NCBI GenBank assembly: GCA_964016885.1
Contig: OZ024740.1
Location: 101,432,001 to 101,496,000, forward strand
DNA length: 64,000 nucleotides
Direction of reading: 5' to 3'
Source of the DNA: Eledone cirrhosa
Lineage: Eukaryota
Position numbers and translations under genes: made by a program. The notes beneath the pieces were generated by a model that saw nothing but the letters and a program-made list of their open reading frames with translations, did not search any database and was not told the DNA's origin. Positions within the stretch are counted from its first letter, which is position 1. Each line of letters begins with the position of its first letter. This document shows positions 19,556 through 56,470 of this stretch, piece by piece.

Positions 19556-19770
19556 AGGAAAATGTTTAACCCCGACGGCAGAGCTCAAGCCGTTTCAACG
19601 GCTATTTCTGGACTTCATGTTGTAGTCCAGAAATAGCCGTCGAAACGGCTTGAGCTCTGCCGTCGGGGTTAAACATTTTCCTATTACCCACTCTACTACC
19701 CTAAGTATTGAGTACTCTGGTGCGTTATGGTCCATCTGGTTCCTTACCACACTTCCTTCGTTATATATAT
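19556..19770 (+). mobile_element. Fold-back, ORF-less PLE-like cassette (family of 23325-23410 and 56211-56470) containing the 3' half of a hammerhead
   Basis: 59-bp inverted repeat 19556-19682; GAAA-CGGC..GCCG-TC-GGGGT at 19642-19669; (TA)/(GA) flanks. Confidence 0.7.
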
Positions 19771-21589
19771 AAATATATATAGAGAGAGAGATAAAATTAT
19801 ATATAATTTTAAATGTAAATATCTCAGGCACTACCACCATATACGGGGAATTAATGTTGACAAATTTTGAGGAATAAATCTTGTTACTCAACATTAAGCC
19901 TGCTCAGTCTCGTCCTAGACTTTGTAGTTTCTGCGATATTTATAACTCAAATGATATCTAAATTTTTGAAACATCCTGTATATTTATGTATGTGGATGTA
20001 GTTCATTAAAAGTAGAGAGGTTTTGTGCTTCCGACACATCTATGAGTTGTCTCAGTCCATTTTGGGGATACCTTTCTCACCATTTTACATGGTGTATTGA
20101 GTACATTTATTGTGACATTGTCACTAGAGATTGTCATCATTGACTCGACTGAAGAGCCCACTCTACTCTATGGACAGGGGTGGTGAGTTGCTAACTGCAG
20201 AGAGATTTGAGAAAGCTAAGGGTGGTGGATGGGAAGGGTGGTGAATGGGCTTGGAGATCTCCAGCAGTGTGGGAAGTATTGTGGAGAAACAGCTAATATG
20301 GGTCTATAACTGGTGTGTGAGGGTTTGTAAGGTATCTAAAGTATAGTGGGAGGATACTTGGATGGTGATCCTAGGAAGAATGTAGGTGTTAGTATTTAAG
20401 AATGTTAAAGTTGACCTTGGTTAGAGTAGGAGTAGGTGTGTACAGTGATGCTAACGATAATTAGTATGGTGGCGACAGTAATGGTGCTTTGTGGATGATG
20501 GGAAACAATATGCAGCTGTGTGAGGTCAAGCTGGTGGACAGGTTTTCTCCAGCAAAGCATCTCACCTGTTCTTGTGTTCCTTTGTCATCTATGTTGTGAG
20601 ATTCAGCATTTTAAGATCAGCTCAAACTACCTCATTCTATGTCTTCCTGGATGTGCCTCTTCCATGAGTTCCCTCCACAGAGATTTCTCTGCACTTTATA
20701 CAGATATGTTATTTATATATATATATATAAACATACATACATATACATACATTTATATGCATATATATATACAAACATTTATATATACATACATAAGCGG
20801 GTTAAAGAAGTGTGTTTGTTTGTCTGTATTGTTCATTTGTTAGATGGTAGTTTGAGTTGTGGAATGATGCTGTTGAATAAGTGAATTGCTTGTTATTTGA
20901 GTAATTGCAAGTAAGTGAATTCTCTTGGTGAATCAAGAGAAATTTTGCCATGCTCAAGAAAAACAAGTAGTTGTACTCACTTGTTGTGGTGTGAAGTGAC
21001 ATTACCATTGGGAAGATGATTTTCCCAAATCACAAGGATAAGAATTAACAAATGAAAAAGACACTGCTAATTTAAATTGCTTTTATTTTATAATTTGATT
21101 TAAATCAAAATCATAGATAGCAAGTATAGATGCAGTATGTGTGCAATTTAAGATACATTGTGGTAAATTTTACTAGCCTGATAGCAATCTTAGCTAGTTC
21201 TGATTCCAGCAGGGCTGACTAGCAAGAGTGTGTGTCTGTATGTGTCTGTATCTACGTTGCTATACTAGCCAAACAAAATATCTGTTGCGGAGTCGGGAGG
21301 CAGACAGTATTTTGCCAAGTCAAAAAGCAAAATGTGCCCAGGGGGTTGAAATATCTTGTGTATGTCAGATTTAGGTCATCCAGAGGCATTAAACAGATGG
21401 TCTTTTTTACTGTCCTCTCTTCAGACATTTTGGTGCTATGAGCCTTCTACAAGAGAGTATTATCTAAATGTTGGGCCATGTGGTCACACGTCAGTCATTT
21501 GGTTGTGTCTGGCAGGTTAAGAAAACCATTGTAGGAAAAATATGTTGAGATTTCTCTCTCTACACACACAGATATATATATATATACTA

Positions 21590-21860
21590 GGACGGGTAAA
21601 ATTCCTGAGATCCATGGACGAGTTCTCTCCAGCGGTCTCTGTCCCTCATTATCGCTGCCATGTCCTGCGTCTCCAACAGACCAGCGTTTGTCCTTAGGGC
21701 ATCAACATACGTTAACTTTGGTCATCCTCTTCCAGTGTGTCCATGTAGGGCTCCCACAGGAGGACTGAGTGCAATGTCAACTCTGGGTGTCGGTGAGCAT
21801 GTCCAGCTAACCTCAGTCTCTTCTGTGTCACTTTTGAGCTGACTTTTGGGAGGCTCCCAT
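21590..21860 (-). mobile_element. RTE-type LINE 3' fragment (second subfamily)
   Basis: KRLRLAGHAHRHPE...LLWEP. Confidence 0.7.
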
Positions 21861-22890
21861 ACATATATATATATAAGCTCGACTTTGAGAGTGTGAGCAT
21901 GTGGTTGTTATATGAGTGCGAAAATAAAAATCTTGCAATTGTGTTGAAAAACATAGCAACATCACACCAATTGTATAAACTTCCGTTTGTTCTGAATGGA
22001 GTCTATTTACCATATTATCATCTGTTCAAATTCTCATTGGGATTATTATGATTAAATAGAAGAACACTTTGACAACTTCAAATGATTTAGTGATCTACAC
22101 GACAGTATTTATAAATAGATTGAATAAACTCTCTGATAGTTTTCATATATTTGGACACAAGAATTAAGTCAACTAGAAACACCTGTACATCTCTTGTTTA
22201 CCCACTTCTCTTTTATTTTTATATTTCTAGAAGTTTATCATCAATTCAAATATTTATTGTAATATTATTGGCATTGTTTTTGTTGTTAGCATCGTTCTTA
22301 TCATCATCATTATCATTGTTGCCATCAGCAACCTCATCTTTCATTTACTGATTAGAAACAAGACCGCCATTAAATAAAATAAAAATGCTCTCTTTCGGAA
22401 CGCTAACAAGAAAGAACTTTGTATCACTGTTTGATAATGAAAGTTTAAATTAAATGAACTCTATAATGACACTGTTTAATGAACCAAGAATATTGTTATA
22501 TTTGTAATTCTATAACTGTTAAGAAAAATAAAGGTGTTAATTTTGGGGTCATTTGATAACTAGTGTTTATATCTTTTGTTCTTCCCTTTATCTCTCTCTA
22601 AATATTCAATACTTTAACATAAGCTGATGTTATTATTGGTTAATTTTTCTGACTGAGTTGGAAAATGTCTAGATCTGACAAGGGTCTCTTGATTTCAAAC
22701 ATAATTGTTTCTATCCAAAGAAAATGATAAAATTAACTGCCTGGAGAATCATAATAAATAATAGGTACTGGCTTGGCTGCTTGGTTAAGAATTTTTCTTT
22801 GCAACTATATGATTTCAGGTTCTATTTCATCATAAGATAACTTAGCCAAATGCTTTCTACTATAGCCTCAAGCTTGTATACATATCTATA

Positions 22891-23081
22891 ATAATTGTTT
22901 CTACTTTTGACACAAGGCCAGCAATTATCCAGTGCATTACTGGTACTTTATTTTATCGACCCTGTAAGGATGAAAGGCAAAGTTAACCTCGGCGGGATTT
23001 GAACTCAGAATGGCAAGGGCCGTAACTCTATGCGTCAAAGCACGGCGGCCGACCCTCTACCGTTACTGCGAATCCACCGCC
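22891..23081 (-). mobile_element. tRNA-derived SINE (family B), full copy
   Basis: Minus-strand head GGCGGTGGATT..GGTAGAG, B box GAGTTCAAATCC; many copies in the window. Confidence 0.8.
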
Positions 23082-23278
23082 ATACATATCTATAATAATG
23101 GATGCAAATTACTGAGTGTGTCCAAAAAATAATCTTCTTGTAGATGATATCAGCTACCGGAAATAACATATCACATGGTAATATATCCGAGGGAGAAATC
23201 AAATTGCATTAGAGTGAATTAAAATTACTGCTGTGCCTAAAAATGTTATCTTCACCTTTAAAACTACCCAGTCACCAA

Positions 23279-23322
<44 letters not shown>

Positions 23323-23324
23323 TA

Positions 23325-23410
23325 TAACGAAAGAAATGTGGTAAGGAACCAGGTGGACCATAACGCACCAAAGTACTCAATACTTAGGGTAGTAGAGTGG
23401 GTAATAGGAA
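23325..23410 (-). repeat. 3' terminal fragment of the 19556/56281 cassette family
   Basis: gtggtaaggaaccaggtgg..cataacgcacca..agtactcaatacttagggtagtagagtggg next to (TA)n. Confidence 0.8.
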
Positions 23411-23979
23411 CCAGTAATATATATATACATAATCTTACATCCATTTTCCCCACTAGCAAGGGTTTCCCGGGTCTTCAAAGACCAAGTTAGTACTGAAGTG
23501 GGGCTACTGACCTCCCAGACAGTCTATGGGTTCACATCTTGCTTATGTTCTACCAAGTGTATTTTATTGTGGCATCAGCACTAGATTGGTTGTTGATCAT
23601 TGTCCCAACTGGAAAACTGGGATTTGGGAGCAGGGCAATAGGTATGAAGTTATCGATGTATTGCCAATTTTGTGAGATTTGACAGGGTGATGAATAGAGA
23701 GAAGGGTGACTAATAGTTTATATATATATACATAAAAGGAAAATTGTTAAAATCAAATACGACATGCAGTGTAGATATTTTGTCTTGTTTTATTGTCCAG
23801 TGTCCATTCATTCTGAATTGCTATCTTTTGGGGGATTTTATTGATGCACTGGGAAGATTTGACATGTCTTTTGAATGATCTGAAACTATAATGATTCTCA
23901 GAAGACAGCTGATGTGTGGGAAGTATCCTTTCTGAGTTTTCTGTTTTCTTTATATTCCCCACTAGTTTTTTGAAAACTG

Positions 23980-24013
<34 letters not shown>

Positions 24014-24166
24014 GTATGCTGAAAAGATAGGCTAGCTATGAAATAGTGATGCTAGAGCTGTGAAATAAATTAATTGTTTCTTTCTGGTGACTATGTTAAA
24101 AAATAAACTTCATTTGGTCATTTCATGAGAGTATCTTGTCAATTATGAACTTTTCAACTGGCCTTC

Positions 24167-24213
<47 letters not shown>

Positions 24214-24286
24214 AAAAGCAAACAACACAGTACAATGCAAAAAATATACTATTAGTTTTACGCTTGATATCGTAGAAAAAGAGTCT

Positions 24287-24313
24287 TAACGTTTCGGACG
24301 CTAGTCCTTCATC
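24287..24313 (-). ncRNA. Truncated minimal (PLE-type) hammerhead ribozyme
   Basis: GATGA-A-GGAC-tagc-GTCC-GAAA-CG-TT; the CT of the core and the stem I 5' arm are replaced by (GA)n. Confidence 0.55.
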
Positions 24314-24761
24314 TCTCTCTTTCTCTCTCTCTTGACTGTTATGAAAGGATACTGGTAGTCATCATTAACCCTAGTCTATATGTATTGTAGATGTTGTCTA
24401 GAAAATTTAGAATAGTTTACCTTTGAATTTTATTTCCTCTCTCGTATATTTAAAAGTTAGTTGGTCTCCTGTCCCCATCCTGGAGGCTTGTCAGACCAAA
24501 GCTTATTTTGAATTTATTCACATTATGTGACTGAAAGAACAAGACTCCCTCCTTGGCAGGACAATTGTCTCTTACATGGTCAACTCCTAACTGTTGATGG
24601 TAGTTGTTTTCAGTTAATTAGAGTGGAGCCTTGTGGAATGAAACATCTTGCACCAGAATACACAGTTCAAGAAAGGCATTTAGCTGTAAGACACTGTCTC
24701 TCATAGGACTTAGTGTGGGCCTGCAAGTGTCTAACCCCTGCTTTAGTAGAGAAAATCACCT

Positions 24762-25758
24762 TAAAATGCTTGAAGGACAAAGAGTTATTTTATCAGAGTT
24801 GAATAAATTTCATTTGCTACTAGGAATTACTGGGTTATTCCTGGTCTTCAGGATAGGTACACCCTATTCCTATATGCCATAAGAGACAACTGATAGGGTT
24901 GGTAACAAATGGAAAAAAAAACCTGCCACAAAAATGCAGTCCAACCCAAGCAAGTATGAAAAAATTGACATAAAAATTATGTGATGTGATAAATATTTCA
25001 GATGGGAAATGAATTTTTTTGTTTTTGTTTTGTTTTTTTTTTCTTTTTCATTCTCTGGGATCTACTTTTCTGAAAGGGAAGATTGCTGTAACTAACAGCA
25101 ATAGAAAAATCAAGAGATTTGTTAACGTTTCTCTCATTCTTTCTTTTGAAAGGATATATCTAACCTATGTTGCTTAGTTTAAAAGTACTGGTTTACATAT
25201 TTTTGCTTTCCATTGCAAAATATTTTTTAAACAACAAAAGACATATATTCTCTACAGAAAGCTGTGTAAAAAAAGAAAGTCGAAAATGAAAATTTGAATG
25301 AATAAAAATTTAAAATCACAAGAGAGAGTTTTTTTTGTATTTTTATTAGAAATATGATTTGATATAAAATTGAGAATACTCATATCTTTCACTTTATGTT
25401 GGCAGTCTAATTTAAATACATACATTCACACACCCACACACATTTATATCTATACACATACATTCATATATGTACATATATACAAACACATATGTGCATA
25501 TATATATACACATAAATATATTTATGTTTATACATCTATGCATATAGTATAAAATGCTTGAAGGACGAAGAGTTATTTTATCAGAGTTGAATAAATTTCA
25601 TTTGCCACTAGGAATTACTGGGTTATTCCTGGTCTTCAGGATAGGTACACCCTATCCCTATATGCCATAAGAGACAACTGATAGGGTTGGTAACAAATTG
25701 AAAAAAAAAACTGCCACAAAAATGCAGTCCAACCCAAGCAACTATGGAAAAATTGACA
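24762..25758 (+). repeat. Direct repeat pair of about 209 bp (24762-24970 and 25550-25758)
   Basis: Near-identical sequence aaaatgcttgaaggac...aaaattgaca. Confidence 0.85.
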
Positions 25759-25774
25759 GTCTTAGTCTTAGATT

Positions 25775-26215
25775 CTTCCGCACCATTCAGCGCATCGAGC
25801 AGTAACTGGTCGCCAACGGTCACGATCAGCAGCAACTTTTTCGAGACCATGCCAGGTGATGTTGGCTGCCATCAGGTCCTTCCGGAACGTTCATCGTCAG
25901 GTGATACTTGGGTAACCCCGCCTCCGTTTACCGCCAGGCAGAGTCCAGTTAATTGCTGTTTTCGAATGCCTTTCATTTGGCAGACACAGAATATGGCCAG
26001 CCAGCCGGCACCGTCGCTCCGTGACCACTCTCTGTAGCGTGCATGACTCAGCTCTCTGCAGGAACTGCTCGTTTCACACTCGGTCGCGCCAGGACACACA
26101 AAGGATCTTTCGCAGGCCCCGCTGGTGGAAAGCATTCGGCCGTCTCTCTACTTTTTCCGTACTCTTCCCGGTCTCGCTCGCATAAAGCACTGTCGGCAGC
26201 ACGATGCTTTTGTCC
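25775..26215 (-). mobile_element. RTE-type LINE 3' fragment (third subfamily)
   Basis: [11 protein letters not shown]...[18 protein letters not shown]. Confidence 0.7.
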
Positions 26216-26356
26216 ATATATGTATATATAAATATATGTATATATAAATATATACATACATATATATATATACATATATGTATATAATTATATATATACA
26301 TATATAAATATATGTATATATATATATATATGTGTGTAGGTATATGTATGCCTATG

Positions 26357-28592: not shown

Positions 28593-29954
28593 TCTTTATA
28601 TATATAAAAGTGACGATGTGTGTGTGTCTGTGTACAACTTTGGATACCTAAGGCCTTTACAATTACCAACCGAATTTGACCAAATTTTGTGTGCACGTTG
28701 CACAGGTCGCTAAGATGGTCACATCACAAAGATTTTTCCAATCGACCCACGTTGAGCAATAAAAAATCGATATCAAAATTATCGGTAGCAAAATTGATGT
28801 AAGGGAGATAACCAATTTTATTGACAATCCTTATAAAAAAAAGGGAGATAACCAACTTTATTGACAATCCTTATAAAGAGAGTGAGATATGGAGACCTTT
28901 GTTTTCAATTTTAAAACAACAATCATCGTCGGACGAAATTTCAGAAATATAAACATCAGATTCATTTGAAGATAAATCACTAATATTATCGTTTGTTTCT
29001 TGTTTATTCTTTGTTGCACTTTCAAAGTTTAAAAAAAACACTTGTTGTTTTAACTTGTTTCACTATATTAAGTTCACTATATTAAGTTTACCTCCTAATA
29101 TCACTACTCCATAACTATGCAATGGTACACGCCTTGTGGTTAAAAAAACTGTCTCCACTTAGTATTGACGCTACCATTCTATCCGGATGTGGTAAAGGCG
29201 AGGATGTGATAATAACAAAAATTAGCCGGACTACATCAGGCGTGGATACTACCTTCTCCTTTCGCCAAAACCAATTTCCCCTTCGTGTTGCCTTTGCGAT
29301 GTCCATAAACATGTCGCAAGGTCAAACTCTGTCCGTCACTGGAATTCACTTGGATGAACCTTGCTTTTCGCACGGACAATTCTACGTTGCCTGCTCACGA
29401 GTTGGCAGTCGAGATAATCTCTGCGTTTGTTCCGAAAAGAAAAACAAAGAATATCGTCTATCCTAAAGTGCTTTAGTGTTAAAAAAACAACTTATTACAG
29501 CTCTGTCTTGACTTCACCTTACTCACCATACCAATGAATATGTCATGCAGGATATTTTGGATTATAAGTTCAAAATTTAACCATACACAGGATAGGATGC
29601 TCTCAAAGAATAGATTTTCTCTTATTCTACTCTTATTGTTTTTTTTTTTGTTTGTATACAACACTGCTTTCATTACAACCTTTTGTACTTTAGCAAAACT
29701 GCCTGTTTTTTTACAGATTTGCAACGTGTATTGTCTTTAATCATTTGTATAAATACATCCTGTTCAGTGTTTTTCATTATAATCAACATAGTTGTATGTG
29801 TACAAAGATTGCACTAAATATTCGTTTGCATTAATTATTGAAGACTTCTGCTTATTTTGACATGTTGGGGACAAATAATGTTCTTCTTTTACTTCCTAGA
29901 TGTATACACTAAGCATAATTTCAAATCCAGAGCAACGCCGGGTAAATCTGCTAG
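28593..29954 (+). mobile_element. Internally deleted Helitron with a Pif1 helicase C-terminal remnant (29122-29466)
   Basis: A|TC start; QFPLRVAFAMSINMSQGQTL, HGQFYVACSRV; GC-rich subterminal hairpin then CTAG|T at 29951-29955. Confidence 0.85.
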
Positions 29955-30109: not shown

Positions 30110-30540
30110 GTGGCCATCCAAAATCACCGGGAGAGATGACCCCTTGGCCTTTGTCAAGGCAGAATTCTAGGAGAAGGAAAACTCTGATATAACACCTGCA
30201 ACTCTGATGGTATCCAATGATGTTGACTTGTTCTTCTTTTTGGTAAATATCATCTTGGTTAAGAGAGTGGGACTGGCTTTGTGCAGTGCCTTTGCTCCCT
30301 ATAAAAGCTTCACGGCACAGGCATTGCTTTATATCTGGAGATCTCTCTGCACTTGTCGTCACATGGTACCATGGGCCCAGCACTATGTGTCAATTATTGT
30401 CACAAGTTTATTGTTTGTACCAGAGTTTTCAAGTCGCTGGCTGGACTAAAAAGTCAAGACACTCGTTCAGCGCATCGGTAGGGGTTATCCTACATGGATA
30501 TAAAGTAGTGGCCGTACTCGAAAACGAGTTAGCAGCCACC
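30110..30540 (+). mobile_element. Probable LINE (RTE-like) 5' UTR fragment
   Basis: GC-richer island between microsatellites with ctaggagaaggaaaactctga, which resembles RTE 5' leaders (recognised by eye only). Confidence 0.35.
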
Positions 30541-33543: not shown

Positions 33544-33646
33544 TAATACATTTGAATACTAAAATCCAAAGAGGTCTCGATGAAGATAAATATATATTAA
33601 ATATATAAGAACCGTAGAGCAAATATTTATTAAAATAACAGATTAA

Positions 33647-33697
33647 AGTTTAAACAAAGAATCGCTGCTTTCACCCTTAACGGGTTCTTCTGAAACT
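33647..33697 (-). ncRNA. Hammerhead-like fold in the inverted pLTR (CAGAAGA core variant)
   Basis: AGTTT-CAGAAGA-ACCC-gttaa-GGGT-GAA-AGCA..TGTT-T-AAACT. Confidence 0.6.
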
Positions 33698-34007
33698 AAC
33701 AAAGTCAATCTGTGATGTATTTATTTAATTTCATTTACCTCTGTATTTTATTTACTTTATTCTTAACTCTGAAGCCGAGAATCATTCGGTTTCCTAGTTA
33801 GAATTTTAGTCTACGACTTCTTTTATACCTTAAACGTGGTTTTGTCTTTGCGTGTAATTGTTTTTCACCGCTCCAAATAATGACGTATTCGTTTCTCCAA
33901 TCTTTGCCAGGGAACGTTTCCACGAACCAAAGTATCGTCTTCCTGTCTTCCTCCGGTTGCGACGTTTTTTGAATTATTCTCTTCTGCGTTCACAGATTGA
34001 CTCTGTT

Positions 34008-34058
34008 AGTTTCAGAAGATCCCGTTAAGGGTGAAAGCAGCGATTCTTTACTTAAACT
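34008..34058 (+). ncRNA. Hammerhead-like fold in the 5' pLTR
   Basis: AGTTT-CAGAAGA-TCCC-gttaa-GGGT-GAA-AGCA..TACT-T-AAACT. Confidence 0.55.
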
Positions 34059-34211
34059 TTAATCTGTTATTTTAATAAATATTTGCTCTACAGTTCTTAT
34101 ATATATGATATATATTATCCTTATCGAGCCCTCTTTGGATTTTAGTCTTCAAATTTATTATTATTACTATTTGGCTCCCTCGGTTGAGCACTCTATTGAG
34201 ATATATTCATC

Positions 34212-36332
34212 ATGCAGAAACAACATCTGAATATTTCTACAAAGAACATACCCGTACCAAGCAGGAAATCATACCTAAAACTCCTGATACAGAAAACAGA
34301 CGCGTTCATTAAAAGGTTGCGTTGGCGTGCCTTTTATTTCGATAATCAGGGAAAAGCAGACAACAAACAGGATAAATTTGGGTTTAAAACCTATAATAAC
34401 CCTCCGAGTAACACAGCATAGCTACCCTTCGAAAATGATGTCTTGGAACTCATACGGTGTATCAATTTTCGGAATAGGAGCAATTCCTTCCAGCAGGACC
34501 TGAAGAATAGAATTCGTTCTATTAAGGATTCTAATGCCGTGCACGTCCATTCCGACAAAACTGGCAATCTATATCAAGTGGAGCCTAGTACTTACCATCA
34601 ACTGCTACATAATGCTGTAACTAAAGACTACCGTAAAACTAATCGGTGCGTCATTAATGAAATCAACGATGCTGTGTTTAAAATCACCTCTGATCTCAAC
34701 ATGTTGGACCGGGCTGAACCTCTGGACCCTATTTCACCCCACTTTACCCTGAAGGATCACAAATCCAATTTTCCAAACAACCCCTCTATTCGGCTTATTA
34801 ACCCTACGAAATCCGATTTAAGTAGACTTAGTAAAGGATTCTTGATAGTATCATACCTGAAATTAGAAGTTTGGCCCCTCTTGCACTGTGGAACAATTCT
34901 TTCGCGGTGATTGATTGGTTCAACGGCATATGCAACAAGGAACACTAATTCGACATCAATAATTACTACTCCTCCATCACTTTACCACTTCTCCTTAGAG
35001 CTATCAATTTCGCTTAAACACTCACAGTGGTTAAGGATTTCGAAGTTTATGTCATCCTCAATGCCCGTAAGTCGGTGATTAATTTCGACGACTCTATTTG
35101 GATTAAAAAAATCTAATAGTACCCCAACCTCATTCGACGTGAGTATGGGCGCCAACGATTCTGCGGAGGTTACTGATCGTATCGGCCTTTTCCTTCTTTT
35201 CTCTATCAAGGAAGAATTCCCCAACGTGGGCGGTGGTTTGTACCGTGATGATGGTCTTTTGACCATGACTAAGTGCGGCCCACGTGCTTGCGACAGGTTC
35301 AGAAAAGAACTCACAGCCTTCTTTAAAGGCTTCAACCTCTCCATACAGGTTGAGGCCAACCTCTCGGTCGTTAATTACCTCGACGTTACACTCAATTTAT
35401 CGAATGGATTGCATTACCCGTATAGAAAGCCGAATGATACGCTTAATTACATAACTAACATTCTAACCATCCTGCGAGCATAACCAAGAACATAGTAAGA
35501 AACGTTTCTTTGAGGCTTTCCAGTCTATCTATTAACGAGCATATTTTCAACGACCATTCCACATATTACAATGAAGCTCTTGATCGGAGTGGATTTGTCG
35601 ATATGGTAGCATATACAGAGTACGAGAATAGACCTAGAAGAAATAGATGCCGACGCATTATATGGTATTACCCACTATATAATATGGAAGTGGCCACACA
35701 ATTAGCTAAGATCTTTCTCTCCCTTATTATGAAGCATTTTCCCCCTACACATAAATATAGTGAAATTTTCATAGAAATTCTATTAAAATTTCTTACTCTA
35801 CGACTCCTAACCTTGCACATGACATCACAGCTTCAAATTTAGCTAAACTACCTAGCCGTATGAACACGTGCAACCCTGTAGTTAGTACTAACTGTAATTG
35901 TAGGAATCGGATTGACTGCCCCTATCCGGGAAATGCCTCTCTAGTAACATTGTCTACAAATGTAAGGTTGAAACACCCACGTCTCGTAGGGCCTACATAG
36001 GGTTAACCGCCAATAGATTCAAGCAGCGTCTTTACATGCATACCCATTCTTTACGTTACCATTAAAGAAGGAATAGGACGTCACTTTCAGCTTATATCTG
36101 GAGTCTAAAAGACAACCACACCCAATATAAGTTACACTGGGAGATCCTAGCTAGGGCTAGATCGTATAACGGAAATAAAAGACCATGTGACATCTGCGCC
36201 GCTGAGGCCTTGGAAATACTCTACGTCAAAAACCACATCTTAAACAAAAAATCTGAGGCAATTTCGGCTTGTAAACATAAATTGCACAAAACTTTCCTGT
36301 ATTACAGCCCCACATTATACCCTAACGGATAG
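34212..36332 (+). pseudogene. PLE RT-GIY-YIG polyprotein, disrupted
   Basis: KNIPVP..IKRLRWRA, SDKTGN, RLINP, MGANDSAE, YRDDGL, CNCRNRIDCP, IVY..AYIG..FKQR, CDIC..E, LNKKSE..CKH; TAG at 36330-36332. Confidence 0.88.
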
Positions 36333-36718
36333 AATGAACTATACGCGGATATTTTAAGTCCTGATGTGGTAGCTAAGTATATGTTATGTTTATACCATTA
36401 CTTATTTGTATAGGTAAGTATATATTACCTGTATGTTTTGTGAAGGTACGTATACTTTCTCGTACGTATATTTGATTGTATATGTTATGGCGTATATATT
36501 ATATATTCTGGTACATATGCTTTTGGTTATGTGTATACGTGAGTTTTGCGTCTGTGTGAGTATGCGGGTTCGTACGTATGTAGGGTGTGTTTATATGTGT
36601 ACTTCGTGTTTTGTTTGACGTACGGCTCCGAACATAAGTGTATTTACATGTAGGTAAGTGTGTGCGCTTGTTATATACGTATTTATTTATTTATATACGT
36701 TTATTTAATTATATGTAT

Positions 36719-36752
<34 letters not shown>

Positions 36753-37359
36753 GTTTATGTGTATTTGGTGTATACATTCGTATGCGTGCGGGTACAGGCG
36801 TTGCGTGGGTTCTGTATGTGCGTGCGAATTTTTTTTTTTTTTGTGTACGTGCGTGTATTTGTATACCTATGGCGAGTGTTTTCGCGTATGCTTGTGTATG
36901 TACGTATATGGATGCGTGTATGTATTTTATTAATTTCATTTACCTCTGTATTTTATTTACTTTATTCTTAACTCTGAAGCCGAGAATCATTCGGTTTCCT
37001 AGTTAGAATTTTAGTCTACGACATCGGTTATACCATTTACGTGGTTTTGTCTTTGCGTGCAATTGTTCTCCACGCTCGACATATGACATATTATCTTCAT
37101 TTTCTCCGTTCATTGCCAGAGAACGTCTCTATGAACCACCTAATAGAATATGAGTCTACGACTTCTTTTATACTATAAATGTGGTTTTGTCTTTGTGTGT
37201 AATTGTTTTTCACCGCTCCAAATAATGACGTATTATATTCGTTTTTTCCCGTTATTTGCCAGGGAACGTTTCCACGAACCAAAGTATCGTCTTCCTGTCT
37301 TCCTCCGGTTGCAACGTTTTTTGAAATATTCACTTCTGCGTTCACAGATTGAATTTGTT

Positions 37360-37410
37360 AGTTTCAGAAGATCTCGTTAAGGGTGAAAGCAGCGATTCTT
37401 TGCTTAAACT
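37360..37410 (+). ncRNA. Hammerhead-like fold in the 3' pLTR
   Basis: AGTTT-CAGAAGA-TCTC-gttaa-GGGT-GAA-AGCA..TGCT-T-AAACT. Confidence 0.55.
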
Positions 37411-37484
37411 TTAATCTGTTATTTTAATAAATATATATATATATATATATATTAACAAATGGAAACTATATTTCTAAAACCATA

Positions 37485-37554
37485 TATATTTCATTATACA
37501 TATTACAAGGGCCACCAAGGCAAACTATGGTGCGCTTTCATCAGATAAAATATA
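37485..37554 (-). ncRNA. Type I hammerhead fold with a GAAA>GTAA change, in a separate cassette (37452-37725)
   Basis: 10-bp stem I TATATTTTAT/ATGAAATATA, CTGATGA, imperfect stem II of about 9 bp, quasi-palindromic stem III, AUA triplet. Confidence 0.6.
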
Positions 37555-37746
37555 ATATAGGTTAGTTTTATAAATAAATATTGACATACCCAGAAAAAAT
37601 GCAACCACTCTGGTTGGAATCTCCTGGATAGTATATATTGTATTTACTCCAATAATTTGTTGAGTTCTTTATATCAGTTATAAAAATATTTTGCTTTTTG
37701 TATCCCAACAAATTAAATATACCCTCTACACATACATATATATGTA

Positions 37747-40005: not shown

Positions 40006-40321
40006 TATTAGTAAAAAGGAAAAGAAAATGCTGACAAATTTTCCCCAGTGAAAAATAGTTTAATTAGGAACAAGTATAAATTAGTAATAAGTATTGGTTA
40101 GTATTCAGTTTTAGTTTTAAGTTTTTACCGGTTGCTCATTTCCCAGATGAGAGCAAAAATCACGAGCGCTCTATCTCAAAATTATTTTTGAAAAGCATTA
40201 GAAATGCGCAAGCGGTAAACACTTAAAACTAAAACTGAATACTAACCAATACTTATTACTAATTTAAACTATTTTTCACTGGGAAAAATTTGTCAGCATT
40301 TTCTTTTCCTTTTTACTAATA
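40006..40321. repeat. Fold-back cassette with a degenerate hammerhead-like motif
   Basis: Inverted arms of more than 100 bp; TTGAAAA-GCAT-tagaa-ATGC-GCAA-GCGG-TA at 40188-40217. Confidence 0.65.
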
Positions 40322-40382: not shown

Positions 40383-40686
40383 TCATCATCATTTCATCAT
40401 TTCATTTTACGTCCGCTTTTCCCTGCTTGCAAGGGTGGGACGGGAACTGATGCTGGCTTGATTTCTACAGCTGGATGCCCTTCCTAACACTAACCTCATT
40501 TACAGTGAGTGCTGGGTGCTTTTTCGCCGTGGCACCTCCACGACCACTTTACAGTGGAATGATATGGACCCCAGTCCCTATCATCTCATTTCTACAGCTG
40601 AGTAAACTGGAGCAATGTGAAATAAAGTGTCTTGCTCAAGGAAACAACACATCACCCGGTCTTGAACTCACAACCTTTCGATTGCA
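40383..40686 (-). mobile_element. tRNA-derived SINE family A (RTE-type tail), head-truncated
   Basis: Reverse complement of 40770-41072. Confidence 0.85.
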
Positions 40687-40731
40687 TATATATATAATGT
40701 ATATATATATATATATATAATATGTATATAT

Positions 40732-41072
40732 GGAGGCACATGGCTTAGTGGTTAAAGCATTGGCCTTGCAATCGAAAGGTTGTGAGTTCAATTCTCAGAC
40801 CGGGTGATGTGTTGTTTCCTTGAGCAAGACACTTTATTTCACATTGCTCCAGTTTACTCAGCTGTAGAAATGAGATGATAGGGACAAAGGTCCATATCAT
40901 TCCACTGCAAAGTGGTCGTGGAGGTGCCATGGCAAAAAAGCACCCAGCACTCACTGTAAATGAGGTTGGTGTTAGGAAGTGAATCCAGCTGTAGAAATCA
41001 AGCCAGAATCAGTTCCCGTCCCACCCTTCCAAGCAGGGAAAAAGCGGACGTAAAATGAAATGATGAAATGAT
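40732..41072 (+). mobile_element. tRNA-derived SINE family A, full length
   Basis: A box TGGCTTAGTGG, B box GTTCAATTC; tail shared with the RTE 3' UTR; (ATGAA/ATG)n end. Confidence 0.88.
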
Positions 41073-41153: not shown

Positions 41154-41361
41154 ATTATTAGAAATGTTAGCTATCGCCGTAATTTGACTAAAGAAATTAT
41201 TTAGCCTGATAGTGGGGTTAAGAACCCTCGGAGAAATGGAAAAAGACGAGTATTGACGTACATGTACGTCAATACTCATCTTTCTCCATTTCTCTATCAG
41301 GCTAAATCATTTATTTAATTTCTTTAGTCAAAATACGGCGATAGCTAACATTTCTAATAAT
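41154..41361. repeat. Fold-back palindrome cassette in (TA)n
   Basis: Inverted arms around a perfect 30-bp palindrome at 41248-41277. Confidence 0.85.
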
Positions 41362-48652: not shown

Positions 48653-48689
48653 TATATCTTTTATTTAAATACTCTATGATAACATAATT

Positions 48690-48838
48690 TATACCAAAAA
48701 ATATGACAGTTTAAATCTCACACCATGAGTAACCAGTCTAAAATATTATACCAGAAAATATGACAGTTTAAATCTCACACCATGAGTAACCAGTCTAAAA
48801 TATTATACCTGAAAATATGACAGCTTAAATCTCTCACC
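48690..48838. repeat. 57-bp tandem repeat, about 2.6 copies
   Basis: ATACC at 48691, 48748 and 48805. Confidence 0.9.
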
Positions 48839-48857
48839 CAGTCTGAAGTAATTTACC

Positions 48858-49123
48858 AGAAACTACCTGCATCAGTTGTTAGCTGCCGAGACACTGCAAC
48901 CTTCAAAACCTCCATGCTTCCAGAAATTCGCCAACACTACACTTGATATTCTCCTTCCATACACACGCATGCATGCATGTATTTGTGTGTATACGATGAC
49001 TCATACACTGTTCACTTTCCTGACATTTGTATATTATTCTATGTACTATACATGCACCTTTGATGAGTTGTAGCGCACCTGAGCACTGTACACAACAATT
49101 TTCATTATCATTATTATTATTAT
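48858..49123 (+). mobile_element. Second 3' end of the 46847-48341 LINE family
   Basis: Homologous to 48113-48341, ending in (ATT)n. Confidence 0.85.
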
Positions 49124-49896
49124 ATCATGAGTATGTTACTAGAATGGCACTGTTGAATAAAGTACTTAATGCTGTTGAGGCATTCTTTGAAGCGCATTAT
49201 AGGTGTTTGGGGTGGCCTATAGAGCCCAACTACTATCAGGTCATTGGCTTTGTTGTGCACAGTGACTGATTCACAGTAGCCATTGGAGAATGTAATATTT
49301 CCATCTGCCGTAAAGGAATCATGCAGGAAAATGGCAGTTCCACCCTTCCTTCTGTCGACAGATCTGTGCGGATGGTTGTGAAATTCCTCACTTTTACTCC
49401 AAGTGAAGTTGTCAAGGTGGGTTTCAGTAAGAATGAAGAAAGGGATGTGGAGTGGTTACCAACCCAATCATCAATGAGTTGGATCCTCCATTTCTGTGCA
49501 TTGATGGATGGGCTGACACCTTGTGCATTGAGTAGAAATGTGAGGGCTAGTGTAGTGGCAGGTTTTGACTGTTGCAGGTTGCTTGTTTTGAGATTGTGTG
49601 TTATTGACAGCAATGTAGGGGGGGGGGGGGGGGGGCACTGGGGTAATATCATAGGATGGTGTTGGGTGATGGCTAAAAGGTTTTTCTGTATCTCTTTTGC
49701 CAGGTTCAATATTGCTAAAAAAGAAAAATGTTCCTGTTCAGTTTTTGACTGGAATTATGGTTACACTGTTGGATAGGGTTGTAGTTCCCTCTTTCGTTGT
49801 TGTTTTTTTTTGTTGTTGTATTTGTGTCTTTGTGAAAAGACTAGAACAGCATTACTGCAGCAGGGGGTGGTTTCTGTTAGTGCGTTGGGTCCCTGC

Positions 49897-49936
<40 letters not shown>

Positions 49937-50007
49937 TTGTGTATATATTACTCTTCTACTCTTTTACCTGTTCCAGCCATCCAGCTGAGGCCATGCATCT
50001 GTATATA

Positions 50008-50415
50008 TCATCATCACCATCATCATGGTTTTACGTCCGTTCTTCCACGCTAGCATGGGTTAGACGGGTTGTCCTGTTGTGAACAGTGTCCAGACCTTGT
50101 CCTGTTGTGTCCAGTGTCCAGACCTTGCCTACACATCCATTTTATAGTGTGGGCTGGGTGCTTCTTTGCCATGACACTTCCACAACCACTTTGCAGTGGG
50201 GGGGGGGGCATATTGTCCATATGCTTCAGCTTCGGCTTGTTCCTGTGGGGGATCAGGTCTTCTGTATTACTGCGTGACACCAGAGGTCACATTGAGAGGT
50301 GCAATTGGGTAAGGTCGGCTTTTATCATCTCATCCCATGTCTTCTTGGGTCTCCCCACTCCGCGGCTTCCATCATTTCTAGTGTTCTGCACCTTTTTATG
50401 CAGCTGTCATCCTTA
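50008..50415 (-). mobile_element. RTE LINE 3' fragment
   Basis: KDDSCIKRC plus the shared 3' UTR and tail. Confidence 0.8.
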
Positions 50416-50563
50416 CAAGTAAACAACTTGTTCTCATTTCCAACCAACTTTTCAAGAAGCATGATGGAAGAAAAATTACTCAAACATTCGATTTTGATTT
50501 TGGTTTTAAACCTTTCTTTTTTTACTCCTATCAACTCTTTTTAATTAATTTTTTATACTACAT

Positions 50564-50598
50564 TTGACAAGATGGATTTTAATACATCGAAACCGGTA
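50564..50598 (+). ncRNA. Minimal hammerhead-like motif, U3-A8 variant
   Basis: TTGACAA-GATG-(10 nt)-CATC-GAAA-CCGG-TA; stem I weak. Confidence 0.45.
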
Positions 50599-50760
50599 AT
50601 TTTCTCATATACTTTATATACTTCATAAAGACATATTTAAAAAGAATTGTCCCTCTCTTCTTTTAATAACATTATCTTTTTAATAATGTCACTTTGACGA
50701 ATCAAAAACAAAAAAAAAGACCCTTAAATATATCTCCCGTGCTATTTCCAGCTTCATCTT

Positions 50761-50834
<74 letters not shown>

Positions 50835-50972
50835 GTGTGTGTGTGTACCTATCTATATACATGTATGTATATCTATATATATATTTATGTATGAATATCT
50901 CTCTATATATATTTATGTATGAATAACTATATGTATATATGTATGAATATCTATATCTATCTATATATATAT

Positions 50973-51023
<51 letters not shown>

Positions 51024-51232
51024 CATATATACATATATATACATATATACATATACATGTATATATATATGTATGAATATCTATATATATGTATGTATGC
51101 ATATATATGTATACATATATATGAATATCTATATATATGTATACATATGTATGTATGTGTATATATATGTATATATATATATATGAATATCTATATGTAT
51201 GTATGTACATATATGTATGAATATCTATATGT

Positions 51233-51667
51233 ATCATCATCATCATCACCGTTTTACGTCCATTCTTCCATGCTAGCATGGGTTAGACGGGTTGTCCTGT
51301 TGTGGGCAGTGTCCGGTTGGCTGACCTAGTCTTGCTCATACTGGAACTGATTTTGGCTTGATTTCTACAGCTGGATGCCCTTCCTAACACCAACCTCATT
51401 TACAGTGGGTGCTTTCTTCCGTGGCACCTACATGCCCACTTTACAGTGTGGGCTGGGTGCTTTTTTGGTGTGGTACCTCCACGAACACTTTGCAGTGGAA
51501 TGATAGGGACCCCAGTCCTATCATCTCATTTCTACAGCTGAGTAAACTGGAGCAATGTGAAATAAAGTGTCTTGCTCAAAGAAACAACACATCACCCAGT
51601 CCGAGAATTGAACTCACAACCTTTCGATTGCAAGTCCAATGCTCTAACCACTAAGCCATATGCGCCT
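51233..51667 (-). mobile_element. SINE family A with a longer RTE-type tail
   Basis: Head TGGCTTAGTGGTTAGAGC; (CAT)n tail. Confidence 0.85.
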
Positions 51668-51906
51668 ATATATATATATATATCCAATTGAGTTCTAAGC
51701 ACGTGGCTTGAATTCGCATCGGAATTCAACTGACCTGCGCATTTATTGTTTTTTGGCGTTAGTCTCTTTCCTCCTATTTTCGAGACAGTGTGAGATTTTC
51801 TTTAGAACTGCTGGACTAACAACATAGCAGCTCCCTCAAGCACTGATGGTGATTATCGCTAAATATTGATGTTGATTTGGTTATCAATATTAATATTATT
51901 GGGCAT

Positions 51907-52027
51907 CCACTGAAGAATTATAAGAGCCCACTTGTATAAGTATCTGTTGATCTTATACAAGCTTCTACATAATTTGGTATAATTTCACCCAACTTGTAGA
52001 AATCTTATAATGAAACGAGTCGTCTGG
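51907..52027 (+). ncRNA. Type I hammerhead ribozyme, canonical core, branched stem II
   Basis: CCA-CTGAAGA-ATTATAAGA...TCTTATAAT-GAA-ACG-agt-CGT-C-TGG; GUC site after 52024. Confidence 0.78.
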
Positions 52028-52199
52028 TAAGTGATGTATTTGATATATCTCATATGAAATGATATAGCCAATTCTCCACACAATACAATATAGTTAGCAC
52101 CCCGAATGTTTAATTAGGAATATACTCAGGTATTTCCTAATGTTTGTTGAGTGAGTTGGAATTTGGCCGGAGTATCGCTATTAGCTTTCTCCCTTTATG

Positions 52200-52258
<59 letters not shown>

Positions 52259-52375
52259 TTGTGTATAACATCATCATCATCATGAAATATATATGTGTTT
52301 GTGTATATCTATGTGTGTGTGGGTGTATATCTGTGTGCGTATCTATATGTATATGTATGTATAGATGTGTATGCA

Positions 52376-52438
<63 letters not shown>

Positions 52439-52532
52439 TATTTTTGCACATTCATTCTTATTTTTTACTTAGAGAGAAAAATAGATGTTAGATAAGAGAA
52501 AAACTATTTTCTTTTCTTTCTTTCTTTTTCAG

Positions 52533-52692
52533 ATACTTATTCAAATACGGTTGGTTTTTTTGGTAACAAAGCATTGAATTACTCTTCATATATCAAGCTA
52601 AAGGGAAAAATGAATGGAAAGCAAAGAAAAGCTCCTACAGAGTTATTACTAGTGAACAGCCAAAATTATCCGCATGATTAGATTAAGCTATG
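52533..52692 (+). other. Candidate non-coding (5' UTR or lncRNA) host exon
   Basis: Long polypyrimidine tract plus CAG acceptor; ATG|GTAAGT donor; stops in all three frames. Confidence 0.5.
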
Positions 52693-53762
52693 GTAAGTGA
52701 AATTCAATCAGTTAATAGCATTCATAGTGACATGTAAACACAGCTAAATAAGAATAAAATACACTTTTTTTTTACTTCTATGAAATAACATAACAACATT
52801 GTTCTCTCTTCATTGCAATAGTGCTACATTGTTAGAGAATCTGTTTTCTATATATGCACTACGATACGTGCCTATTTTTTAAATTTTATACTTATTTACT
52901 TTTTCATCTCAGGAATCATTTTTAAATTATGTTTACTATTGTCTATTGTTAAATGGAGACCATTTCATGCAAATATTGCCAGAAAGTGTGATAGACATTT
53001 AACCTTGTCATTAGAAGTTTAGATATTTTTATTTTGTTTGTTTTCAGATGTGTATGTGTGTGTACTTATATATGTGTGTGTGTTTTATTTATATGTCTTT
53101 TTATTTAATCATGAACTTTCTTTCATCATTGTCATGCTCATGTTATTGTTATCTGCTATGTCACGAGTTCATCAAGCCTTATCTGTCACCATCACCATCA
53201 TCACACCAACACCGCCCTTGCCACCACTGCCATCACCATTTATTATTACAATCATCCTCATCATTATCGTAATGCTTTTTATTTACTCAATGCTGACAGG
53301 AGTTGAATGAGTCTGCAATACAACATACTACCCTTTGACTTTAATGTTTCATCTTATTGACTTGCCCAAAATGCTAAGATCCACATCACATCACAATTTC
53401 ACCCTTGGACTCCTTCTACCACAAGTGCCTACTCTTACTGTTAGTATGAGGTGCATGTTTAAACATCAAGTATCATCCATCTTCATTACATGCCATACAT
53501 ACATTTTGCTATCAAGGAAACCATGACAACAATGAAACCACAGGATATGAGGGATCTACAATCCAGTATGAAGTCTCTGCATGATCATTCATTCTAACTG
53601 CTAGATGTAGCAACCACATCTTCAAATCACATCCGATTGTTTTATAAAATGGACATATTAGATAATGAATTTCTAGATACGGTATGCTTGAATAAAATAT
53701 AATATTCACAACTGAAATGCTAACTTGTGGTTCAGCAACAGCAACAATTCTTTTTCATCTAG

Positions 53763-54120
53763 TACTCTTGGGTCCCAAATGATAGGGGGTGGCTGGAATA
53801 ATCGGGGCGGGGTGGAAAATCGCTAATTTTTATAGGTTGTCTCCCTTAATATTTTTTCAAAGACCAGGATTAGTTTTTTTGTTCACATATTGGAACACCT
53901 CCCCAACCCATGCTATATATTTTATAATGTATGAGATACCTTGTATATTGTTTTTTAATGTCTAAAGAAAATTGTTATTGTAATGCTACCATTTAAAATA
54001 AAATTTCATTGGGGATAGATCAGAAAAATTTAATAAGTGCAGGGCATAGGATGGAATATGAGATGGGAGATCTGAAAAATTAATAAGCAGCGGGGACGAT
54101 TATTTGAAACCCAAGAAATA
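53763..54120. mobile_element. Putative MITE with imperfect TIRs
   Basis: tactcttgggtcccaaat ... atttgaaacccaagaaata. Confidence 0.4.
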
Positions 54121-54536
54121 AGGCAGATACTGAGGAGTGAGCCATGGTAAAATATTTAACCATGCAATAAAATTTCTAGTTGAGGTTACTTTCATTCCAT
54201 ACTTAGTCTATGAATGGCACACTAACATATGGCTAAAACATTCATGATAAGCCATATATCTATATTTAGTTTTCTCAATACCAATTTGACTATAGTGCAT
54301 GGACAATCCAGAAACCAGTGAGAGTCTGCTTTAATAAAACTTAATCCATTACATTTATTTCAAGAAAACACTTCAGTGAGTTGATTAGCCATGAAGATTA
54401 AAAAAAATAATGGTGTTGTGTATGTCTCTTTGGACCAAGTAATGATGTGTGACATGTGGTGCTAACTGATGCTGAAATAAATATGATAATTGTGTAACAT
54501 GGGAATGATCATATGGAATGGCAATAATAACGAGAA

Positions 54537-54570
<34 letters not shown>

Positions 54571-54573
<3 letters not shown>

Positions 54574-55395
54574 CAAGGTTTAGCAAATAAGAAAAAGTTT
54601 CAAAATAAATTTCAAAAAATTCACTGTATTCACTATGGTTACCTTTACCGAATCGGTTTCGAGTCTCAAAAATAAATGGACAGTCCTTGCGGCCTTCCAT
54701 TGAAAAGATAAACTCTCGTCAGAAGGTGCTTTACACTCAGAGAATATAAAATTCCCGAGTTCAAATTACGAACCGGCGCTATTCAAAATTGTTCCCGAGA
54801 TGAGAATGAATGATGTGGAAGCAATTCTGTCCAGTGCCATGTGTAAAGATAGAAGCAGAGGCAGGGAGGTCAGTCTACTACCACTATAAATAGCAGCAGT
54901 CAAAACGACCAAATTTTTTCTCGACCAAGAGGAGAATAATAATAATAAAGTATATATACCTACACACAAAAAGTGTCCAGGGACATTGTCCAACCATATG
55001 CCAATGTGGTTCAATGGCAGGTTAATAAATTAACGAGCCAGAACATATATAATCAAGGTTTAGCAAATAAGAAAAAGTTTCAAAATAAATTTCAAAAAAT
55101 TCACTGTACTCACTATGGTTACCTTTATCGAATCGGTTTCGAGTCTCAAAAATAAATGGACAGTCCTTGCGGCCTTCCATTGAAAAGATAAACTCTCGTA
55201 AAGGTAACCATAGTGAGTACAGTGAATTTTTTGAAATTTATTTTGAAACTTTTTCTTATTTGCTAAACCTTGATTATATATGTTCTGGCTCATTAATTTA
55301 TTAACCTGCCATTGAACCACATTGGCATATGGTTGGACAATACATGTGTCCCTGGCCGCTTTTTGCGTGTAGGGATATATACTATATTATTATTA
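54571..55395 (-). mobile_element. Retrozyme-like non-autonomous PLE cassette: 480-bp unit, partial tandem copy and inverted arm
   Basis: Direct repeats start at 54571 and 55051; inverted arm 55198-55395; (TA)n flanks; no credible ORF. Confidence 0.8.
54641..54727 (-). ncRNA. Type I hammerhead ribozyme, canonical core, extended stem II capped by GCAA
   Basis: ACCTT-CTGACGA-GAGTTT...AGACTC-GAA-ACCG-att-CGGT-A-AAGGT; GUA site. Confidence 0.85.
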
Positions 55396-55537
55396 TATAT
55401 ATATATATAAACCATCATTTTCATCACCATTTTATGTGTTATTTCATGAATTCATAGGTTGGGACACACACACAAGAAAATTAGGTTTTTAAAAAAAAGA
55501 AAGAAAAAAATGAGATGTCCTACACAGGAGAAAGTAT

Positions 55538-55768
55538 AAGGAAAAGAAATTGAAAATGCAATTGGAGTCTTTTAAGGATATTTATTTATTTACTTTACTG
55601 GTTTCACTGTTCTTATGCTTTTCAAAAATAAAAGTGAGACGAAGGGTTTGTGTTTCTGTTGTGGTTTGTCTCACATCTGATGCGAGACAAAAGCATAAGA
55701 ACTGTGAAACCGGTAAATAAATAAATATTCTTAAAAGACTCCAATTGCATTTTCAATTTCTTTTCCTT
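55538..55768. repeat. Fold-back cassette with minimal hammerhead-like motifs
   Basis: Inverted arms of about 80 bp; minus strand TTGAAAA-GC..GT-GAAA-CCAG-TA (55596-55625); plus arm GCA..TGT-GAAA-CCGG-TA. Confidence 0.65.
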
Positions 55769-56100
55769 CATCATCATCATCACCATACGTCCGCTTTTCC
55801 CTGCTTGCAAGGGTGGGACAGGAACTGATTCTGGTTTGATTTCTACAGCTGGATGCCCTTCCTAACACCAACCTCATTTACAGTGAGTGCTGGGTGCTTT
55901 TTTGCCGTGGCACCTCCACGACCACTTTGCAGTGGAATGATAGGGACCCCAGTCCCTATCATCTCATTTCTACAGCTGAGTAAACTGTGAAATAAAGTGT
56001 CTTGCTCAAGGAAGCAACAACACATCACCTGGTGTGAGAATTGAACTCACAACCTTTCGATTGCAAACCCAATGCCCTAACCACTAAGCCATGTGCCTCC
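55768..56100 (-). mobile_element. SINE family A, full length
   Basis: Reverse complement of 40732-41072. Confidence 0.88.
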
Positions 56101-56107
56101 ATACATT

Positions 56108-56161
<54 letters not shown>

Positions 56162-56210
56162 GTATATATATATATATGTATTTGTATATATATATATATA
56201 TATATATATC

Positions 56211-56332
56211 GAGTACTCTGGTGCGTTATGGCCCACCTGGTTCCTTACCACACTGCCTTCATTATATATATATATATATAATGAAGGCAGTGTGGTAAGG
56301 AACCAGGTGGGCCATAACGCACCAGAGTACTC
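56211..56332. repeat. Perfect palindrome: 52-bp arms around (TA)n
   Basis: gagtactctgg...ccttcat-(TA)n-atgaagg...ccagagtactc. Confidence 0.9.
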
Positions 56333-56374
56333 AATACTTAGGGTAGTAGAGTGGGTAATAGGAAAAGAGTCAGG

Positions 56375-56470
56375 ACCCTGACGGCTGAGCTACAGCCGTT
56401 TCGACAGCTAGATCTGAACTAACCCAGTAGTGTTGGGACAGTAGTAATCTAGCTGAACTTATCAAGGGGT
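56375..56470 (-). ncRNA. Type I hammerhead fold, U3-A8 core variant, extended stem II
   Basis: ACCCC-TTGATAA-G..CAGCTAGAT...ATCTAGCTG..C-GAA-ACGGCTG-tagct-CAGCCGT-C-AGGGT. Confidence 0.72.

Follow-up and report, generated by a model that had tools for sequence, protein, structure and literature searches.

Hammerhead ribozyme cassettes in (TA)n tracts of Eledone cirrhosa: probable footprints of Penelope-like retrotransposition

What are the small cassettes without open reading frame (ORF) that carry hammerhead ribozymes in the microsatellite tracts of Eledone cirrhosa? The question is raised by a stretch of 64,000 nucleotides (assembly GCA_964016885.1, contig OZ024740.1, positions 101,432,001 to 101,496,000 of the forward strand; hereafter the window), in which hammerhead folds or halves had been predicted from the letters alone at 13 sites between positions 19556 and 56470. 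The original prediction took them for a diverse population of self-cleaving non-autonomous RNAs or solo pseudo-long terminal repeats, a candidate system driven by a Penelope-like element (PLE). The reading favored here, which is held to be probable, is that the cassettes are footprints of Penelope-like retrotransposition, and that at least one family, built on a 480-nt unit, is a retrozyme-like passenger of Hydra-clade PLEs, recognised by a pair of bulged hairpins. The phenomenon is real and mostly of a known kind; the new part of the findings is the paired hairpin and its link to the clade. Features are listed in Table 1.

All 13 sites contain hammerhead-like sequence, though of unequal quality: a canonical and complete form at two, a complete form with defects at six, and halves or remnants at five. 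The hammerhead needs U4 and GAAA (standard core numbering is used). The canonical complete type I hammerheads are those at 54641 (-) and 51907 (+), with descriptor scores of 38 and 37; both have the full CUGANGA...GAAA...UH core on three helices, with stem I open. The sites at 33647, 34008 and 37360, all in one PLE insertion, are complete, with U4 changed to A and N17 = U. The site at 56375 is complete, with a U3-A8 core variant and a mismatch at pair 1.1/2.1 (fold z -3.6 against shuffles). Two further sites fold no better than shuffled sequence, namely 50564, with a U3-A8 core and a stem I of merely 2 bp (z +0.2), and 37485, with CUGAUGA intact and one base of GAAA changed (z +0.1). Hammerhead 3' halves within fold-back inversions are found at 19642, 55121 and 55596. 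The site at 40188 is a decayed 3' half that has lost GAAA, and the fold first proposed there is probably not the real one; that at 24287 is a remnant, in which a (GA)n tract has replaced the first two core bases. The expected number of about eight families is correct when the PLE is included. The sites at 19642 and 56375 belong to one family (A, 88% identical), and 40188 and 55596 have the ribozyme 3' half in common. Most copies in the window look catalytically damaged, and most are probably dead.

The chance expectation was obtained from 200 dinucleotide shuffles in 500-nt blocks, searched with a type I descriptor whose tolerance for a changed U4 is post hoc, introduced after the PLE copies were seen. 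At a score of at least 28, four matches were observed against a shuffle mean of 0.15, and none of the 200 shuffles reached four. With the canonical core only and a score of at least 32, two matches were observed against 0.01, and again no shuffle (0/200) reached two. The excess over shuffled sequence, proposed as a check together with the prediction, is real. A covariance model for which 22 outside loci were the sole training set gave 23 matches; its ranks 1-5 are taken by five of the 13 sites, with weak E-values (0.08-0.83), and the other eight are missed.

The element at 33550-37434 is, by its diagnostic motifs, a decayed Hydra-clade PLE. Its ORF encodes reverse transcriptase (RT) and GIY-YIG and is broken by stops and frameshifts. 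The motifs RWR (34320), DKTG (34554), YRDD (35241), CxCX5C (35893), AYIG (35991), CxxC (36186) and CxH (36270) were found; a motif scan gave no CCHH pattern, and the GIY-YIG is C-terminal. The diagnostics described for the clade are RWK, DKT, a CxCX5C linker, CxxC, CxH, absence of CCHH, together with GIY-YIG at the C-terminus (PMC8557442). Like the published Hydra-clade PLEs (PMC8557442), the window element adds to these motifs a type I hammerhead close to its 3' end, a (TA)n target and an inverted 5' copy. It has hammerhead pseudo-long terminal repeats (pseudo-LTRs); the cores of its three hammerheads are at 33692 (-), 34013 (+) and 37365 (+), with U4 changed to A in all. The distance between its ribozymes is 3352 nt, against 2.4-2.8 kb in relatives, and its identity to the relative P0002 is 46%. 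Pfam gave no real match for five pieces of the PLE or for two relatives, and the N-terminus had no match in a viral contig collection. A Hydra-clade family of Octopus bimaculoides, Hydra-1_Obim, is listed in the supplement of PMC8557442; the window PLE belongs to another family, differing by eye in N-terminus and ribozyme, and is decayed, with the U4-to-A change.

The PLE had been called the only coding member among the cassettes. Its coding traces are confirmed, but the ORF is broken, and a second Hydra-type RT remnant of another PLE family lies at 57770-58274, outside the range first considered. This remnant was rejected as partner of the ribozyme at 56375, with no PLE trace found between the two. 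Descent of the cassettes from the untranslated regions (UTRs) of the window PLE was also rejected: none of eight pieces aligned above shuffles, and therefore this PLE family is not their parent.

The link to the Hydra clade comes from relatives, for which 80 of 318 metagenome loci found by an RT alignment search were taken. These loci gave 51 hammerhead descriptor matches at a score of at least 26, with CUGANGA in 47. Their ribozymes share the style of those in the window: stem II has U-U or G-C at its base, nine of the 51 have N17 = U, and one has a U3-A8 core. Strong covariation was seen in the 22 hammerheads with a 7-nt stem-loop III (73 two-sided cells against 22.7). Non-coding sequence of 45-462 nt separates stop codon and core in 28 cases, and 183-217 nt separate core and ATG in nine. 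At 46-71 nt past GAAA follows a hairpin consisting of GCTC, a variable inner stem, a 2-nt bulge and GAGC-AC, present in 17 of the 21 relatives with room for it (20 of the 34 examined) and in 0.4% of control windows. Its inner two pairs covary (12 cells against 3.6). A second hairpin stands about 60-85 nt after the first, ahead of the ATG. The hairpin model R1, built from outside loci without window sequence, gave 70 matches in the 80 loci, 65 of them on the PLE strand (19 are training rows). Of its 10 matches in the window, ranks 1-5 are the two hairpins of the PLE and three family A copies. The hairpins are also visible by eye in the published consensus sequences Hydra-2_Amil, Hydra-1_Ajap and Hydra-2_Ajap. 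The main texts of PMC8557442 and PMC4209133 do not mention them, and literature searches, with most subscription papers and two relevant supplements out of reach, found no description of the pair. The hairpins likely name the driver clade.

Some observations stand apart from this link. The uncertain sixth-ranked R1 match lies beside family G, and a link through an inverted arm was not significant. The family D ribozyme has, about 70 nt upstream of it, a shortened look-alike of PLE hairpin 2 (51828-51845). At L027:1691-4150 a Hydra-type frame continues into an unrelated C-terminal part; behind it, at 4250-4431, come a hammerhead, the two hairpins and a fresh start codon. Hammerheads of other PLE types adjoin Hydra elements at L016:325 (+), L016:523 (-), L014:1796 (-) and L019:2247 (+), which suggests shared insertion sites.

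Family C has no ORF. Its 480-nt unit has 37% GC, a longest ATG frame of 52 aa and a circular fold with z -3.0 (60 shuffles), and the hidden Markov model (HMM) of Hydra PLEs has no match in it. Both hairpin types are present in order, with one changed pair each. A diverged copy of 317 nt, with 38 other letters, covers 54765-55074 and passes hairpin 2, the point at which an ORF would start. From one other species a contig spans 54591-54820, and contigs of another tile 54654-54973. Four sequencing runs were mapped on 54569-55770, and raw reads cover every bin of the unit. Since the ORF-less unit is tiled by other copies, family C is likely a non-autonomous PLE derivative, to judge from its sequence. 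The predicted non-autonomous population is upheld for this family only; solo pseudo-LTRs may be what the six remaining non-coding families represent. The same mapping indicates that family E is multi-copy. Peaks of read begins and ends in run X8 were rejected as cleavage ends; they lie at AATT sites and are cuts of the restriction-site-associated DNA library. The family motifs had no matches in metagenome contig and viral contig collections, and the sole match in a genome contig collection (L081) was discarded as a chance 19-mer in an archaeal gene.

The arrangement of the inserts is that of Penelope-like mobilisation. All 10 insertions have a (TA)4+ tract at most 198 nt 3' of the predicted cut, against 20-25% of random positions. 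The median 3' distance is 99 nt, against 601-773 nt at random (P 0.0004-0.004), and the 5' distances (116-1211 nt) are ordinary. The islands had been described as bounded by microsatellite, which holds for the 3' side; the cassettes are therefore anchored one-sidedly rather than reliably bounded on both. Some bias is possible in these figures, because the sites were picked by a reader who had noticed the islands. TA targeting is not unique to PLE-type cassettes, because GC-richer fragments like long interspersed nuclear elements (LINEs), free of hammerheads, also sit in TA tracts (21586-21860, 23410-23710, 25760-26215, 30110-30540).

Tandem or inverted duplications are present as described, as partial tandems and inverted arms (e.g., the 1.3 units and arm of family C). 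Head-to-head inverted arms occur in five insertions, with junctions in the ribozyme or within about 25 nt of it, which accounts for the 'half' hammerheads. Substitutions and indels set the arms apart from their partners. Four family A copies end at a common site. That the ribozyme helices set the junctions is a weak lead: the junction at 55199 is at the cut site, those of 55596 and 40188 are compatible, that of 19642 is uninformative, and that of the PLE lies 23 nt upstream of the core, where the helix rule does not hold. An inverted arm beginning at stem I of 37485 was rejected (score 21 against a shuffle maximum of 32).

A mechanism can be proposed for such inserts. The hammerhead would cut a tandem or read-through transcript into unit-length RNA, possibly ligated into a circle, and the hairpins would be bound by a Hydra-type RT-endonuclease. 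This enzyme would nick (TA)n, and reverse transcription would have an internal start, some 25-200 nt behind the cut site, where the sequence is AT-rich. Copying through the ribozyme would give one-sided, partial-tandem inserts. Second priming off the other strand would add an inverted arm ending in or beside the ribozyme and leave 'half' hammerheads. For the Poseidon element PAc of Anolis, internal priming behind the ribozyme, nicking at AT-rich sites and extension of both strands are reported (PMC11167929). This mode fits the tails and inverted arms in the window. PAc belongs to another clade, and its binding region is part of the ORF, whereas the hairpins of Hydra elements are in the 5' UTR. 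Families B, E and F, whose palindromic stem III is minimal and which show no hairpin, are likely members of other PLE clades. More tentatively, the paired hairpins might be the packaging and priming signal of Hydra-clade RTs, kept with compensatory changes by several families of circular hammerhead RNAs that hijack the enzyme.

Several results weigh against a Hydra-clade passenger system. Just two non-coding families out of seven have the hairpin in sense; none was seen in sense in B, D, E and F. The family C hairpins were found solely by a looser post hoc descriptor and are missed by R1. The loosened descriptor gives 22 matches in the window against 10.2 in 25 shuffles, nine of the 22 being in cassettes or the PLE. 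The four basal pairs of the hairpin carry no covariation signal, because they were fixed by the search pattern used. The octopus consensus Hydra-1_Obim has, by eye, no clean GAGCAC, and the U4-to-A change occurs in none of the 51 ribozyme matches of the relatives. No stem covariation was seen between 19642 and 56375 or among the window families' own copies, where the variants and indels from read mapping, among the 40 of 290 listed, are in loops or outside the ribozyme core. Read mapping covered two of the seven non-coding families only, and no single record in these runs spans the 480-nt unit from ribozyme to ribozyme. Ribozyme cleavage is dispensable for Poseidon insertion in vitro (PMC11167929).

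Of the other explanations, one carries some weight: that all cassettes are solo pseudo-LTRs, the ends left by 5' truncation of many autonomous PLE families, and that a separate non-autonomous population does not exist. It may well be true for most families, and as an account of all it is rather unlikely. Truncation at the 5' end and inverted arms are usual for PLEs, coding traces of two Hydra-type families occur within the window, and families A, B, E, F and G stop before the ORF start expected from the nine relatives. Family C speaks against it, being continuous across the ORF position in the diverged copy and in another species, and keeping both 5' UTR hairpins with no ORF behind them. An improbable alternative regards the units as non-LTR retrozymes of the classical kind, in which strongly expressed circular RNAs multiply into tandem arrays, with the driver unspecified. 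The size, composition, non-coding nature and circular fold of the family C unit would agree with it, mussel retrozymes being 350-390 nt long (PMC7229834). The window, however, has no array with two complete ribozymes; its inserts are scattered over (TA)n tracts and show inversions of the PLE type, and the words 'inverted' and 'microsatellite' are absent from the main text of PMC7229834.

It is highly improbable that the folds are due to chance similarity within palindromic, AT-rich repeats resembling miniature inverted-repeat transposable elements, or to assembly fold-backs. Rfam at the gathering score gave three tRNA matches and no hammerhead in the window, with no hammerhead among the matches listed (150 of 261) and none in 54570-55390; two sites fold like shuffles and five are halves. 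Yet no shuffle matched the top scores, independent models rank the sites first, the arms are not identical to their partners, and families occur in other species. A chance origin is refuted for 54641, 51907, 56375 and the PLE; it may apply individually to 37485, 50564 or 24287. Penelope-like footprints remain the preferred reading, with 3' ends in (TA)n, partial tandems, inverted arms and Hydra-clade hairpins in two families, and the predicted PLE-type mobilisation is supported.

The idea of a separate system fares worse, as non-LTR retrozymes and their PLE origin are already published (PMC7229834; 10.64898/2026.07.22.740005). Such retrozymes occur in coral, in mussel and in axolotl, and PLEs have been put forward as their driver (PMC7229834). 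It has since been argued that retrozymes are non-autonomous PLE derivatives, with monomers common, and an active retrozyme is defined by a tandem of at least two units with complete hammerheads (10.64898/2026.07.22.740005). Family C resembles animal retrozymes in its small, low-GC, non-coding unit and type I hammerhead. The locus holds 1.3 units, its second ribozyme is truncated, and there is no tandem of two complete hammerheads; for this reason family C is filed as a retrozyme-like non-autonomous Hydra-type PLE derivative. The window cassettes differ from retrozymes in being dispersed in (TA)n, in having PLE-type partial tandems and inverted arms instead of arrays, in their long or branched stem II, and in a cis-element indicative of one PLE clade. 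With the minimal PLE hammerheads (PMC4209133), families B, E and F have in common a palindromic stem III of 2-3 bp, suited to dimeric cleavage; family E differs from them in its 17-bp stem II arm. Literature searches found no paper on cephalopod retrozymes.

Table 1. Cassettes, Penelope-like elements and hairpins in the window
Feature	Position	Strand	Remarks
Family A insertion	19556..19760	+	62-bp inverted arm; hammerhead 3' half, predicted cut after 19664; tail ending in (TA)n
Family A, hairpin 1 (Hydra-type)	19690..19713	+	first basal pair A-U, not G-C; R1 E 4e-4
Family A, tail-only copy	23327..23410	-	absent from the original prediction; hairpin 1 at 23375-23398
Family B	24210..24310	-	minimal-hammerhead remnant (palindromic stem III) and tail, between (GA)n and (CA)n(TA)n
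PLE (decayed, Hydra-clade by motifs) in (TA)n	33550..37434	+	inverted arm 33550-33715; upstream pseudo-LTR; 5' UTR; ORF ~34212-36330; 3' UTR; downstream pseudo-LTR
PLE hairpin 1	34085..34129	+	loop expanded by TA repeats; ~53 nt past GAAA; R1 E 0.011
PLE hairpin 2	34174..34189	+	38 nt ahead of start codon; R1 E 1e-4
Family G	37452..37550	-	CUGAUGA intact, GAAA damaged, stem II long; tail-to-tail with PLE within a single TA tract; covariance-model E 0.28
Possible Hydra-type hairpin, uncertain	37646..37665	+	opposite strand to family G hammerhead; R1 E 0.08, rank 6 (site 37638)
Family E2 fold-back insertion	40008..40319	+	decayed hammerhead 3' half in each arm
Family F	50560..50760	+	U3-A8 core; stem I broken, stem II of 4 bp, stem III palindromic; tail running to (TC)n(TA)n
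Family D island between TA tracts	51681..52199	+	canonical hammerhead 51907-52027; 9-bp stem II bearing two more hairpins; z -2.6
Family C insertion	54569..55396	-	1.3 tandem units; inverted arm 55199-55396 beginning at predicted cut site
Family C hammerhead, canonical complete type I	54641..54727	-	long stem II; predicted cut after 54646; hammerhead is the minimum free energy fold, z -0.8
Family C ORF-less 480-nt unit, cut site to cut site	54647..55126	-	
Family C hairpin 2 variant	54919..54935	-	first basal pair U-A; directly after (TTA)n tract, as in PLE; post hoc descriptor
Family C hairpin 1 variant	55009..55044	-	second basal pair U-A; z -3.3; second copy at 55282 (+)
Family E1 fold-back insertion, multi-copy	55512..55768	-	hammerhead 3' half; 17-bp stem II arm; palindromic stem III
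Family A	56207..56475	-	complete U3-A8 hammerhead 56372-56468; hairpin 1 at 56329-56352; tail; tail-to-tail 54-bp inverted copy
Second, old Hydra-type RT remnant, other PLE family	57770..58274	-	HMM E 2e-17

The animal DNA of the window is repeat-rich, with long (TA)n tracts, LINE fragments, short interspersed nuclear elements (SINEs) derived from tRNA, and one LTR retrotransposon. The latter lies at 9773-14560 (-), with LTRs 88% identical and frames like gag, RT and integrase. A pair of tRNA-derived SINEs stands head to head around a TA tract at 40386-41072, and more copies are at 51340-51663 and 55768-56100 (Rfam tRNA matches). The elements at 28650-29930 and 3700-4130, located in TA tracts and ending in a short hairpin and CTAG, are what we take to be Helitron-like; a helicase-like piece is encoded at 29086-29466. 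A further fold-back element is located between TA tracts at 41154-41361, with a weak ribozyme-like stretch near 41205-41240. The tandem repeat at 61986-62283 contains several CTGAAGA words and no hammerhead fold.

For the mobilisation of animal retrozymes, PLEs have been proposed from co-occurrence and from pseudo-LTR similarity. PLEs whose RTs are 40-54% identical to that of the window element have the hairpin pair conserved, and ORF-less passengers keep it. The pair offers a handle for a bench test of which enzyme copies which RNA, and a marker for Hydra-type non-autonomous elements, which Rfam and Pfam missed here. If the pair is indeed the packaging and priming signal of Hydra-clade RTs, animal retrozymes would have a named driver and a named cis-element.

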